Shown here in pieces: positions 1-12,440 of a stretch of 64,000 nucleotides of DNA. The stretch covers positions 128,001 to 192,000 of the forward strand of contig NJBH01000001.1 in NCBI GenBank assembly GCA_005223125.1. Reading direction: 5' to 3'. This DNA comes from Promethearchaeota archaeon Loki_b32 (GTDB taxonomy: Archaea > Asgardarchaeota > Lokiarchaeia > Sigyniarchaeales > SOKP01). The notes under the pieces are model-generated. The model ran no database searches, was not told the DNA's origin, and saw only the letters and a program-made list of their open reading frames with translations. How positions within the stretch are numbered: the first letter of the stretch is position 1; each line of letters begins with the position of its first letter. A program made the translations under genes and the position numbers.

Positions 1-1108
1 TAGGACCATATAAAACATTAAAAGGAAAGTCAGGAGCCTCACTTTTTAATACTGGTACTGCTATTCCTCCTGCAGCAAGTTGAGGTAAAATTATAGTTTT
101 CTTTTTCGTAATTTTAGCAATACCCGTAGCTCCTACCGCTTCTATTAATTGTTTGTTCCCAAAATTATCTCCCCGTGCTGCACACCATACATTTATACCT
201 TTAGAATCAACACATAATACCCAAGCATCTATTCCTTTAAGAGAACGCATAACTTTAATATATGTATAAAGATAATTAGCAGTTACTATAATAGGAGACT
301 TTTCATCAGGTGTTCCAGATTGATAAATGCCTGGTTCAATTGGTACGTGATCTACTTGTCCTGTAAAAATACAGCGATAGATGCTCATTTGAGATCTAAA
401 TCCTTTAAATTTTCTAAGACTAGGGCGGTAGTATCCTGGTTCTTTTAAATTTTCATCCTCTACCTTTTTTAATTCAATTACTTGAATAGATCCATGACTC
501 CATTTTTTTTCTGCTACCATCTTAAAACCTATAGGTTCTAAATAATTGAAAAACCACTTTACTAGAAAAGTACTTTCTAATCGTAGTCTTCTTAATTTTT
601 TTCTGTACCTCCACCGCTTTATGTTAAATAAAATTTTCCAAATACCTGAAGGAACAAATTCAGCTGCTAAAATCATCCGACCATTCGGTTTCAAAGTTTT
701 CCATGCATTTCTTAGAAAGACCTGTTGTTCAAATGGCCTAAGTTCTGAAAGCATAAAAGTACTAACAATTAGATCTTTAGAACTATCTTCTACGGGTAGA
801 TCGCTGATGGAACCTATTTGATATAGAAGTTTTGTACGTTCTTCAGAAGGATAATTTTTCATGGCAGTATTTATCATTTGTAAGTTTTTATCTATTGCAA
901 GAACATTATTTCCTTTTAAAGCCATTTTTTTAGCAAGAGTTCCTGTCCCACATCCTACTTCTAAGATAATCTGTGGTGCTTTTATCCTTTCTAGTACCCA
1001 ATCATGAACTTTGATATTTGTACCTTTAGTAAGTGCTGTGAATTTTGATTCATATGTTTCTGGTTCTAATTCCAACTTTCTCATATAGACTACAGCGATT
1101 TTAATCAC
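1..1108 (-). CDS. Class I SAM-dependent methyltransferase fused to an HgcA/CdhD-like corrinoid-binding domain (3' end runs off the window)
   Basis: Manual translation gives one uninterrupted frame from GTG 1108 (in-frame ATC 1099, ATG 1084) to position 2. N-terminal half has SAM motif I ILEVGCGTG, VLAID, DLIVSTFMLSEL and LKPNG. C-terminal half has PIEPGIY, PDEKSPIIVTANY, DAWVLCVDSKGINVWCAARGDNFG, IILPQLAAGG and YGP, the conserved blocks of the HgcA corrinoid domain. Absent from the ORF track because no stop lies in the window. Confidence 0.85.
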   Translation of the reverse strand, partial: MIKIAVVYMRKLELEPETYESKFTALTKGTNIKVHDWVLERIKAPQIILEVGCGTGTLAKKMALKGNNVLAIDKNLQMINTAMKNYPSEERTKLLYQIGSISDLPVEDSSKDLIVSTFMLSELRPFEQQVFLRNAWKTLKPNGRMILAAEFVPSGIWKILFNIKRWRYRKKLRRLRLESTFLVKWFFNYLEPIGFKMVAEKKWSHGSIQVIELKKVEDENLKEPGYYRPSLRKFKGFRSQMSIYRCIFTGQVDHVPIEPGIYQSGTPDEKSPIIVTANYLYTYIKVMRSLKGIDAWVLCVDSKGINVWCAARGDNFGNKQLIEAVGATGIAKITKKKTIILPQLAAGGIAVPVLKSEAPDFPFNVLYGP

Positions 1109-1202
1109 GCCTTTTTATTGTATTTTTTATTGATTGTAAATTAAAAAAAAATAAATATTTATATCTTATAATTTTTAATTTAGATTTAATTGATATATTT
1201 CC

Positions 1203-1238
1203 CTTTAACAACAACCTTCTTTTGATTCCTCATCATCA
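1203..1238 (-). repeat. Decayed copy of the 3' end of the Cys-Cys micropeptide gene (direct repeat of 2090-2125)
   Basis: 35/36 identical to 2090-2125; reads DDEESKEGCC* but is preceded by an in-frame TAA and has no start. Confidence 0.85.
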
Positions 1239-1326
1239 TGTTAATATTTATCTCTTCTTTTTGGGGGGATTCAAAATTCAGTGAAATAACCTCATAAAGT
1301 AATTTAGGCAATTTATTAATAATTGT

Positions 1327-1914
1327 TTATTTCTGAAGCAGTTTTGTTGCATTTAGAATGTTAAATCCAAGAATTTCTGCTTGTTTTAACTGGTTTTCTT
1401 GGTTTAAAATATCGCCTGGTTTGTCAGCTACAGCTTTTACCCCAAATAAATCACCTGGAACACATATAATTCCACATGAGAGCATCCATGTATAAATGGC
1501 ATTAAGTGTTATTGTTTGACCTCCCGTTGTTCCACCACCAACCGCAATAGCTCCACCTACTCTCCCTTCTAAAGGTTTTTCGACATCTACCGCAAAGTGT
1601 CTATCAAGTAAGGAGAGTAATTGAGCACTAACATTTAGGAAATAAACAGGACTTGAGATTATAATCGCATTACACCATCGAAACGCATCATAAATTCCTT
1701 GCATATCATCATTAATAACACAAGTACCCGTTTCCCTACATGAGTCGCAGGCATTACAAGGTTTAATTTCTAATTCGCTTAAAAGAAAAATTTTAACATT
1801 CCATCCATTATTTTCAAAAGGTTTTAGAGCATACCTTAAGAGGATTTCACTATTCCCTTTCTTCCTTGGAGTCCCTGATATACCAATAACATTCATTTTT
1901 TTTTTTGAACTCAA
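1327..1914 (-). CDS. Iron-sulfur flavoprotein / NADPH-dependent FMN reductase (flavodoxin-like, Isf family)
   Basis: GISGTPRKKGNS FMN loop, CNACDSC-x5-C cluster motif, SPVYF; start may be ATG 1896. Confidence 0.85.
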   Translation of the reverse strand: MSSKKKMNVIGISGTPRKKGNSEILLRYALKPFENNGWNVKIFLLSELEIKPCNACDSCRETGTCVINDDMQGIYDAFRWCNAIIISSPVYFLNVSAQLLSLLDRHFAVDVEKPLEGRVGGAIAVGGGTTGGQTITLNAIYTWMLSCGIICVPGDLFGVKAVADKPGDILNQENQLKQAEILGFNILNATKLLQK

Positions 1915-2091
1915 TAATAATTTTGTTAATAGATTATTTTACAAATAATATTTTTTTGATTGCAGTTTTTCTACAAATTGTATTTACTAACTTTTGTATC
2001 CAATCTGTATTTTTTATTGAAATAAAACTGAAAAAAATAAAAATTTTGATCTTATAAATTTTAATATAACCTTAAAGTGAATTCTTTTACT

Positions 2092-2169
2092 TTAACAACA
2101 CCCTTCTTTTGATTCCTCATCATCACTTTTTGTTTCTTCAGTACAACATTCTTTATCTTTATCTCCCAT
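2092..2169 (-). CDS. 25-aa acidic micropeptide with two Cys-Cys pairs (MGDKDKECCTEETKSDDEESKEGCC), putative metal-binding peptide
   Basis: ATG 2169 to TAA 2092; GAGGT Shine-Dalgarno just upstream; own TATA-like box and palindromic operator; duplicated 3' end differs only synonymously. Confidence 0.7.
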   Translation of the reverse strand: MGDKDKECCTEETKSDDEESKEGCC

Positions 2170-2209
2170 ATGTAATTACCTCTTTGTTTAAAATTTAATT
2201 TTTAATTAT

Positions 2210-2227
2210 TAGTTAGGTTCCTAACTA
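2210..2227. promoter_or_regulatory. Palindromic operator TAGTTAGG-tt-CCTAACTA upstream of the micropeptide gene
   Basis: Perfect 8-bp arms; abuts minus-strand TTTAAATA TATA-like box; identical copy at 2807-2824 within a 35-bp shared block (2194-2228 = 2791-2825). Confidence 0.75.
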
Positions 2228-2299
2228 TTTAAATGTTTCGTTCCGTATAATTAAGCTCCTAACAAAGATTTAGAGAGATGATAATCTCGCGTAAAACTA

Positions 2300-2764
2300 T
2301 TAGGGTTTTAGTGCGTTTAACAATTTTTGGAGTAATTCTCCCAATATTATGATCTCTTCTTGTTTAATTCCAGGACAACAACCGTTTACAATCGTTTCTA
2401 AAGGAGGGGTAACATTTTTTAAATCTTTCCCTTTTTTTGTAAGCTTAACGAAGAGACTTCTTCTATCGTGAGGATTCGATTCACGAGAGACTAATTTTTT
2501 CTTTTCCATTGTGTCTACCACACCTGTAATTGTAGATCTAGAACAATTACATGTCTCTGCTAAATCTTTAAATTGTTGACTATCAACGCTCCATAATTCC
2601 CTCAGAATGAAATGTTGAGTTGGTGTAAGCTCTAATTCTTGAATATTATCACGTTCCAATTTTTCGTATTTTTTGCTTAAAATATTTATAAGTTCAAAAA
2701 CATCAACAATCTCTTTGGGTTGACAGCAATTATTAGGGGATTCGGGGGTTTTATCTCTACTCAT
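2300..2764 (-). CDS. MarR-family transcriptional regulator, cysteine-rich
   Basis: LTPTQHFILREL, SRSTITGVVDTMEKKKLVSR, DRRSLFVKLTKKG winged HTH; extra NNCCQ, TCNCS and NGCCP motifs. Confidence 0.9.
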   Translation of the reverse strand: MSRDKTPESPNNCCQPKEIVDVFELINILSKKYEKLERDNIQELELTPTQHFILRELWSVDSQQFKDLAETCNCSRSTITGVVDTMEKKKLVSRESNPHDRRSLFVKLTKKGKDLKNVTPPLETIVNGCCPGIKQEEIIILGELLQKLLNALKP

Positions 2765-2806
2765 TTTTTTTTCAGATGATTAGGGTTTTTTTTAATTTTT
2801 AATTAT

Positions 2807-2824
2807 TAGTTAGGTTCCTAACTA
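2807..2824. promoter_or_regulatory. Palindromic operator TAGTTAGG-tt-CCTAACTA upstream of the MarR gene (autoregulatory site)
   Basis: Identical to 2210-2227; abuts minus-strand TTTATATA TATA box at 2823-2830. Confidence 0.75.
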
Positions 2825-3010
2825 TATAAAATTATTTGAAATTTCCACTTGATAAATGATAAATTTTTTTATTTTCCATAAATTAACCTGGAAATTTTAT
2901 TATTTAATAAAATAAAAGAAATATGCTTATATTGGATAATTAGTTAATTTTAAATATTCTTTTTTTTTGTCAATACATAAAAATAATATTCAAAAAAAGA
3001 GGTAATCTAG

Positions 3011-3592
3011 ATGGAAAGTAATAATGATTTGAGTGAGAAACAATATTGGAAGGATGTTATAAAAAAACATCAAAGTGCATTTATAGTATTAATAGTAGCA
3101 GGCGTTTGCGTAATTGTAGGAGCTTTTTTAGTATTGTTTTGGGTTATAGAGATAAATCCCTTCGTCAATCCACGTACAGGTACCTTTGACGATTGGACAC
3201 TAAATTATATCGTTGGCATTACTATTCTTACAATTTTATCGGAGTTGCTATTTGTAGGTATTCCAACAGGAATATTTTTTGTCTTAGGAGGATATTTATA
3301 TTGGCGTAAATTACCTGAAGAAGAAAAGCAAGAATTCAAGGATAGAGAGAAGAAAAAGACTCATAGAAAAAAAGAATACGGCGGGGGCGGTGGTTTTAGC
3401 TTCTTTATGTTTATAGCTTATTGTATTTATATTGCTGTCGACGGAAATTACAATGCAACTTTTGGTAGCCAACCATTTAGTTATTGGATTTATTCATGGC
3501 TCTTAACTCTAATGTGGATATTCATAGTATTTGGTATTCCCATAGGAATTCTACTTATTTCATACTATATATACAAATGGAGAAAAAAATAG
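3011..3592 (+). CDS. Hypothetical integral membrane protein (about 4 TM helices)
   Basis: 193-aa ORF, GAGGT RBS, hydrophobic segments around a charged loop. Confidence 0.7.
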   Translation: MESNNDLSEKQYWKDVIKKHQSAFIVLIVAGVCVIVGAFLVLFWVIEINPFVNPRTGTFDDWTLNYIVGITILTILSELLFVGIPTGIFFVLGGYLYWRKLPEEEKQEFKDREKKKTHRKKEYGGGGGFSFFMFIAYCIYIAVDGNYNATFGSQPFSYWIYSWLLTLMWIFIVFGIPIGILLISYYIYKWRKK

Positions 3593-11858: not shown

Positions 11859-12440
11859 TTAAGATTTAAGTTTCTTGAGTAAATAAACAAAATTCTTGCC
11901 TAAATTTTTAAATGTGTTGATTCCTTCTTCATCGTCCAATACTTCTCCGGGATTTCTTCCAATGCCCAAATTCCAATAACTAGAGCCTACTACGAACATT
12001 TGCTTAATCAAAAAGAAGTAGTTTATGCTGGAGAATACATGATTTGCACCAGCTCTCCTAACTGCTACAACAGCAGCACCAATCTTATGTTTTAAATGAC
12101 CTCCAGTTGCATATCCGGCTCGTTCAATTAAAGCTTTTGTACTTGTTGATAAATCAGAAAAGTAAGTTGGAGATCCTATAATTATCCCATCAGATTCTAG
12201 CATTTTTTCAATGTACTCATTCATATTATCTCCTTCAATAGTACATCTTTGGTCATCATTGTCAATGCATTGATAACAAGCAGTACAACCCTGTAATCTT
12301 TTATTACCAATCCAAATTATTTCGCAATCAATCCCTTCAGCTTTCAATTCTTCCATAACAGTATTTAAGCAATGAAATGTATTTCCTTCTTTTCTTGGAC
12401 TTCCATTAAATAATACAACCTTCATTAATATTGACCTCAA
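11859..12440 (-). CDS. Iron-sulfur flavoprotein (flavodoxin-like, Isf family)
   Basis: NGSPRKEGNT, CTACYQC-x7-C, GSPTYF, GSSYWN; likely start ATG 12425. Confidence 0.9.
   Translation of the reverse strand: MRSILMKVVLFNGSPRKEGNTFHCLNTVMEELKAEGIDCEIIWIGNKRLQGCTACYQCIDNDDQRCTIEGDNMNEYIEKMLESDGIIIGSPTYFSDLSTSTKALIERAGYATGGHLKHKIGAAVVAVRRAGANHVFSSINYFFLIKQMFVVGSSYWNLGIGRNPGEVLDDEEGINTFKNLGKNFVYLLKKLKS

Follow-up and report, generated by a model that had tools for sequence, protein, structure and literature searches.

A methyltransferase::HgcA-like fusion behind a MarR-peptide cassette in Lokiarchaeia as a candidate arsenic-responsive corrinoid methyl-transfer unit

Mercury methylation brings, to our knowledge, no benefit to the host, and the purpose of the mercury-methylating pair HgcA and HgcB (HgcAB) is therefore an open question. 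The HgcAB literature consulted gives no description of the route by which S-adenosylmethionine (SAM) reaches the cobalamin. SAM is the methyl donor of HgcAB and methylates Co(I) (PMC11588087), and in ND132 canonical hgcAB is ArsR/arsenic-regulated (10.1101/2022.10.17.512643). Methylcobalamin can chemically methylate As(III) (reviewed in PMC6950371), and a bacterial three-cysteine MarR protein (MarR_ars, AdMarR_ars of Achromobacter) can sense this metalloid (10.1101/2021.08.12.456183). In this study, we analysed a 64,000-nucleotide stretch (the window, C18:128001-192000) of the 4.13-Mb genome (30% GC) of Promethearchaeota archaeon Loki_b32. Its left end carries a class I methyltransferase fused to an HgcA-like corrinoid protein, preceded by an Isf-type flavoprotein, a small Cys-Cys peptide and a MarR-family repressor, and followed outside the window by an HgcB-like ferredoxin. 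We propose, at about even confidence and with the chemistry deduced rather than observed, that these genes make up a self-contained, As(III)-responsive unit for corrinoid methyl transfer, controlled by a MarR repressor specific to the lineage. A literature search returned no description of the methyltransferase-HgcA fusion or of its MarR regulon; a mention in earlier Asgard hgcA work is possible.

The four genes of the original prediction were all recovered, co-oriented on the minus strand: marR (2300-2764), the peptide gene (2092-2169), the flavoprotein gene (1327-1896) and the fusion gene, of which the 5' two-thirds (1-1099) lie in the window. Retrieval of the sequence left of position 1 gave the rest of the fusion, a 562-amino-acid ORF ending at C18:127420, and 58 nt downstream the gene for an HgcB-like 2x[4Fe-4S] ferredoxin (C18:127057-127362; L001:11057-11362). 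The fusion consists of a class I methyltransferase (about residues 5-215), a corrinoid domain with the cap helix NVWCAARG (window 170-193) and a C-terminus, coded left of the window, with five membrane helices in the structure model and five hydrophobic segments. The AlphaFold2 model reached a pLDDT of 87.9, and the top Foldseek match in the PDB was the HgcAB model 9a0b. The start codon is probably the non-canonical ATC at 1097-1099; the annotated GTG looks like a Shine-Dalgarno sequence. Across 79 loci, the codon at this position was ATG (41), ATC (21), ATA (9), TTG (5), GTG (2) and CTG (1), and the ferredoxin follows the same pattern with ATA; judging from these sequences, AUA/AUC starts may be genus-wide.

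We compared the fusion and the ferredoxin with the defining features of HgcA and HgcB. Like HgcA, the fusion carries a cap-helix cysteine in its PF03599 corrinoid domain (Cys309) and a C-terminal multi-helix membrane domain. The HgcA motif N(V/I)WC(A/S)(A/G/S)GK of the high-stringency definitions of HgcA and HgcB (PMC10087281) is absent; NVWCAARG takes its place in 73 sequences and NVWCGARG in 4. The score against NF040863 (HgcA) is 172 bits at a cut-off of 275, and in two trees the canonical HgcA clade (support 0.947 and 96.6) excludes the fusion, with no resolution deeper. The ferredoxin lies next to an hgcA-like gene and has two CxxCxxCxxxCP motifs. HgcB is further defined by an extra cysteine about 12 residues after cluster 2 and a C-terminal cysteine (PMC7305189); here these correspond to C69/C71 in a GCGC motif and to the terminal pair C87/C88, and GCGCL plus terminal cysteine occur in 39/39 sequences. 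The HgcB motif C(M/I)ECGA is replaced by CTECSAC in 34/39, with ECGA in none, and the score against NF040864 (HgcB), the best NCBIfam match, is 53 bits at a cut-off of 99. The fusion thus resembles HgcA in anatomy and is not a canonical HgcA by motif, cut-off or tree.

This comparison bears on whether the system is an HgcAB variant that methylates mercury under an Hg-sensing MarR, a reading we regard as highly unlikely. The retained cap-helix cysteine, membrane domain and Cys-tailed ferredoxin would suit it, as would HgcAB as the top structural match. However, both proteins miss the high-stringency motifs and the NCBIfam cut-offs, and the fusion stands outside the canonical clade. No mer gene was recognised among the recurrent neighbours of the fusion, and a profile search of the present genome gave no MerA hit over the cut-off. 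Canonical hgcAB was not detected elsewhere in this genome, where only the fusion and CdhE were found. Mercury methylation is a possible side activity of the fusion.

The N-terminal half has its best family match in NF043040 (135 bits, cut-off 180), CpaM, a methyltransferase family that carries the NCBI name corrinoid-protein-associated. Against NF043039, the HgcAB-like fusion family, the fusion scores 173 bits (cut-off 285), and its ferredoxin is a separate gene. Against NF008823 (ArsM) it scores 43 bits (cut-off 263), with one conserved cysteine in the domain. A sister relation to the fused HgcAB-like proteins (0.82 in FastTree) found no resolution in IQ-TREE and is not claimed. Across Asgard archaea the three modules are found both split and fused, in several arrangements. 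Other Asgard families have triple fusions of methyltransferase, corrinoid/membrane part and ferredoxin (589-655 amino acids; L129-L132) or fully split three-gene forms, often beside a large Fe-S gene of about 1150 amino acids (L136-L138, L141). A second, separate CpaM + HgcAB-like pair with the motif NVWCGACG accompanies the ars-linked fusion in MK-D1 (L143) and at L081-L091. A SAM methyltransferase paired with a corrinoid protein of the Cys-cap type is therefore a wider theme already captured in NCBIfam, with the present clade as its ars-linked branch.

Several lines of evidence tie the ferredoxin to the fusion. It lies directly downstream in 75/76 loci with enough sequence, and the SAM motif, the cap-helix Cys309 (77/77) and the ferredoxin cysteines are conserved across fusion loci. 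In structure prediction the two proteins formed a complex with a score of 0.75, compared with 0.00 for the best control; 58/80 solved pairs and 2/110 mismatched ones reach the mark applied. Agreement between runs was at least 93% of contacts, the pLDDT of the partners was at least 78, and both the cap helix and the GCGC segment of the ferredoxin form part of the interface. The model thus supports binding of the fusion to the ferredoxin, although the pass may reflect likeness to HgcAB. The ferredoxin is likely the reductant of the fusion. The original prediction had assigned Co(I) reduction to the flavoprotein in place of HgcB. This was abandoned: with an HgcB-like ferredoxin downstream of the fusion no substitute is needed, and the ferredoxin is near-universal while the flavoprotein is optional, missing from 11/18 MarR-type fusion loci.

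The flavoprotein (minus strand; FMN_red, PF03358, E 4e-29) belongs to the Isf type, since it combines the flavodoxin-like flavin mononucleotide fold family with a compact cysteine motif. Isf proteins carry CX2CX2CX4-7C, and the motif found here is CX2CX2CX5C. A comparison with PDB sequences gave no strong match. The gene occurs in the remaining 7 of the MarR-type loci and in 4 ArsR-type loci, and is absent from most other fusion loci. The present genome holds at least four paralogs, and a second Isf-type gene in the window (11859-12440) encodes a protein 24% identical to that of the module.

The genomic context of the fusion was surveyed in 154 genomes of the order, including 54 genomes of the host's genus (g1), and the fusion was found in 115 of the 154. 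The MarR-operator-peptide cassette stands directly before it in 11 loci and with the flavoprotein inserted in 7; 4 loci have a divergent ArsR together with peptide and flavoprotein, and others have no adjacent regulator. In most other genera, ArsR-[DUF166]-Acr3 lies upstream, often with ArsC or ArsM nearby. Counted within about 5 kb, in genomes having both genes, acr3 accompanies the fusion in 44/61 genomes outside g1, and in 8 genera when g1 is included. The cultured Promethearchaeum syntrophicum MK-D1 has the order arsR-acr3-fusion-ferredoxin. As relatives keep the enzyme in arsenic-resistance operons, its substrate is probably arsenic and not mercury. The broader idea of a thiophilic metal(loid) in the original prediction is supported. 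Its view of the four genes as one circuit holds in part. The genes are syntenic in relatives; however, 11 genomes contain the MarR-operator-peptide cassette, with or without flavoprotein, unaccompanied by the fusion, which in turn also lives with ArsR or with no neighbouring regulator. A fixed four-gene operon was rejected on these grounds. The locus joins two separable units, MarR-operator-peptide(±flavoprotein) and fusion+ferredoxin, and in part of g1 the MarR cassette seems to have replaced ArsR. In many g1 genomes a gelsolin-like gene (L001:10133-11026; labelled from its own sequence) and a gene for a 193-amino-acid membrane protein (window 3011-3592) flank the locus. The chromosomal position is thus fixed, and the regulator cassettes come and go within it.

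The regulator itself (154 amino acids, minus strand; PF01047, E 5e-16) belongs to a MarR clade that we call clade A. Cys74, located in the helix-turn-helix, and the pair Cys129-Cys130 are kept, with 96-100% conservation in the alignment; the monomer model (pLDDT 77) gives no cysteine geometry. A sister clade (split support 0.99) stands upstream of arsM in 18/19 loci. These 19 loci were picked by MarR score and not by neighbouring gene; the two ArsMs of the present genome pass the family cut-off, and the others were assigned by 50-69% identity. Sister-clade loci have a homologous palindrome against a TATA box in the same layout. Clade A itself stands before the peptide and the fusion. Two unrelated regulators, ArsR and a MarR with an arsM-linked sister clade, thus both point to arsenic. 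The present genome (G000) also has a paralogous Cys-rich MarR before two arsM and three DsrE/TusBCD-like genes (contig C37, L032:4087-7894); it has its own related palindrome, and the marR-arsM link is kept in many relatives.

The arsenic ties of the regulators also weigh on a different account, in which the MarR would sense oxidants, electrophiles or another soft metal, the fusion would methylate an organic or membrane substrate, and the ars linkage would reflect shared stress regulation instead of the substrate. The Isf-type flavoprotein joining the cassette would fit such a thiol/redox-stress regulon. So would the methyltransferase domain, which is structurally like small-molecule and lipid methylases, and the related Asgard systems of methyltransferase, Cys-cap corrinoid protein and ferredoxin, whose identifiable neighbours include no ars genes. 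With both upstream regulators linked to ars genes, and with free thiols retained in the ferredoxin as in HgcB, which would fit a soft metal as substrate, we consider this account unlikely.

The operator evidence connects this regulator to its targets. Two exact palindromes, at 2807-2824 before marR and at 2210-2227 before the peptide gene, share a 40-nt direct repeat. The first overlaps a TATA-like box (2822-2831), and the second overlaps an archaeal TFB-recognition-element/TATA-like promoter of the peptide gene on the minus strand (2225-2240; with the operator 2210-2240), deduced from consensus. A weak operator with three mismatches (2248-2265) lies upstream of the BRE-like element of this promoter and recurs at the same position in relatives. 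The chance expectation for the palindrome is 0.23 matches, and three matches were reached in 0/100 shuffles. The scan of the 4.1-Mb genome found the two exact sites and no third one at two mismatches or fewer. With a looser pattern no further site appeared at one mismatch or fewer, which speaks against a large MarR regulon in the present genome; 11 scattered sites had two mismatches. The operator before marR is perfect here and in G048, and 11 other relatives keep only a degenerate half-site. The operator-over-TATA geometry is kept in all clade-A MarR loci that were read, where promoter function is again predicted from consensus. An operator lies upstream of the fusion in 17/17 loci with a clade-A MarR in view and in two more (L019, with marR just outside the locus, and L028), and at ArsR-type fusion loci none was found. 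Among the 54 genomes of the genus, 22 contain the exact pattern and all 22 carry clade-A MarR; it is missing from all 28 without this MarR, and the reversed-pattern control gave 0. Co-occurrence thus supports the palindrome as the operator of clade-A MarR, as the original prediction had suggested.

The membership of the fusion in this regulon, left unproven there, gained support from a single genome. In G100, MarR+peptide, fusion and ferredoxin are spread over three contigs, and operators directly before the fusion and before the ferredoxin are the only two exact sites in that genome. Since each gene keeps its operator although they lie on separate contigs, the arrangement supports both as members of the MarR regulon. 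This reading is offset at the present locus by the lack of an operator directly before the fusion. In G083, an intact operator and flavoprotein gene with a decayed peptide gene form a second cassette remnant (L203, contig C368).

The acidic 25-amino-acid peptide with its two Cys-Cys pairs (minus strand) was identified by conservation in homologues, of which 34 distinct variants were collected. Because the frame is intact and the Shine-Dalgarno-like leader and both cysteine pairs are kept while the spacer drifts, the gene is, by its pattern of conservation, a real one, as had been proposed. It lies behind MarR with or without the fusion and is the constant target of the MarR cassette. The peptide is a candidate mini-metallothionein or metalloid chaperone. 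Just before the fusion, also on the minus strand, lies a decayed duplicate of the peptide 3' end with a T-rich spacer (1119-1240), and where this remnant lies, one relative (L004) still has the peptide gene complete in a second copy; the decayed copy reads as the scar of a duplication or insertion that brackets the flavoprotein gene. At one locus (L194; G132:C38), all that follows the sister-clade marR is a short peptide similar to the Cys-Cys-rich N-terminus of ArsM. This hints at a truncated arsM as a possible origin of the Cys-Cys peptide; given the low complexity, it is a lead only.

Combining these observations, we favour the following mechanism. MarR dimers, placed on the palindrome over the TATA box, would block transcription until the conserved Cys74/129/130 capture a thiophilic metalloid in its trivalent form, As(III) or Sb(III) being the most likely, and the DNA is released. 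The Cys-Cys peptide would be made first and might buffer or carry the metalloid. The ferredoxin and not the flavoprotein, paired with the enzyme by synteny and model, would then reduce the Cys-ligated cobalamin of the membrane fusion to Co(I), in analogy to HgcAB. The fused class I domain would present SAM to form methyl-Co(III), from which the methyl group could pass to the metalloid while the thiols of the ferredoxin, in GCGC or in the terminal Cys-Cys pair, hold it in place. The flavoprotein would be an optional redox-protective extra. Because the SAM motif is kept and the ArsM cysteines are absent, the fused domain more plausibly feeds cobalamin than methylates arsenic itself.

Reductive or demethylating chemistry is an alternative that accepts the arsenic link and does not involve net methylation of arsenite. 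Here Co(I) would attack or reduce organoarsenicals or halomethanes, and the SAM domain would only reactivate or prime cobalamin, as is known for SAM-dependent reactivation of methionine synthase. ArsM is already in the genome, a preprint reports dechlorination of CCl4 by HgcAB (10.64898/2026.04.26.720869), and an hgcAB knockout in ND132 altered sensitivity to As(V) and not to As(III) (10.1101/2022.10.17.512643). On the other hand, the methyltransferase is full-length with its SAM motif and is fused or adjacent across the wider family, which suits a catalytic donor, and we judge the reductive role distinctly unlikely.

Several points also weigh against arsenic methyl transfer by a MarR-controlled unit. 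Besides the absence of an operator directly before the fusion, a T-rich possible terminator precedes it in the present genome. Inside g1, acr3 lies near the fusion in 5/41 genomes only, several fusions have no adjacent regulator, and the surveyed genomes are related, so that the counts are not independent events. The two ArsM genes of the present genome above the family cut-off make a second arsenic methylase look redundant, and this weighs most against simple methylation of arsenite. Tested fused-HgcAB-type paralogs do not methylate mercury (PMC10087281), so activity is not readable from the fold, and the arsenic substrate, cofactor binding and arsenic-induced expression are predictions. In its most far-reaching form, the proposal is a cobalamin-dependent, SAM-fed metalloid (arsenic) methylation distinct from ArsM, widespread in Lokiarchaeia and equipped with a 25-amino-acid chelator peptide and an archaeal MarR that evolved independently to sense As(III). 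This we regard as tentative and somewhat doubtful; if true, it would indicate which chemistry is native to the HgcAB family and by which route SAM reaches its cobalamin.

Elsewhere in the present genome, contigs C28, C32 and C24 (L205, L206, L207) contain arsR-acr3 at two loci, together with three clusters of small genes that lack annotation (about 97 and 120 amino acids) and that also follow the ferredoxin in relatives. At one of these loci there are three ArsR-like genes, and a C-terminal fragment of MerA/Lpd type that does not have the terminal cysteine pair.

A paralog that brings its own SAM-binding domain and is repeatedly placed in arsenic regulons, by regulators of two unrelated families, allows both HgcAB questions, its purpose and its methyl supply, to be tested directly. 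Cultured P. syntrophicum MK-D1 has the enzyme pair, which could be tested there. As the fusion genes resemble hgcA, surveys of mercury-methylation genes should leave them out until they have been tested. With their defined operator, the MarR clades are candidates for a new kind of As(III) sensor in archaea; what the present locus adds is the operator evidence, the swap from ArsR to MarR and the modular cassette.

In comparison with HgcA and HgcB (NF040863/NF040864; P. mercurii ND132), the system shares the corrinoid domain with cap-helix cysteine, the C-terminal membrane helices, a 2x[4Fe-4S] ferredoxin that is encoded downstream and has extra and terminal cysteines and, in some hosts, an ArsR/ars neighbourhood. 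It differs in the fused N-terminal class I SAM methyltransferase, in NVWCAARG, in the CTECSAC and GCGC segments of the ferredoxin, in scores below the cut-offs, in its separate clade and in the MarR regulator of this lineage. CpaM + HgcAB-like pairs (NF043040 + NF043039) consist of the same three modules, methyltransferase, Cys-cap corrinoid/membrane part and ferredoxin, and co-occur with the fusion in many genomes including MK-D1; here, methyltransferase and corrinoid part are joined, the ferredoxin is free and Cys-tailed, identity is about 30%, and the clade has an ars context. With ArsM the fusion has the class I SAM fold and the ars context in common, whereas its domain is without the arsenic-binding cysteine set of ArsM and conserves only Cys53, inside the SAM motif. 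The clade-A MarR resembles MarR_ars in its MarR fold, in three conserved cysteines including a vicinal pair and, through its sister clade, in a link to ars genes. It does not have the Cys36/Cys37/Cys157 arrangement of MarR_ars, its own being Cys74/129/130 (compared by position numbers), and it is set apart by an archaeal operator overlapping the TATA box and by its targets, the peptide and a corrinoid enzyme, with arsM in the sister clade.

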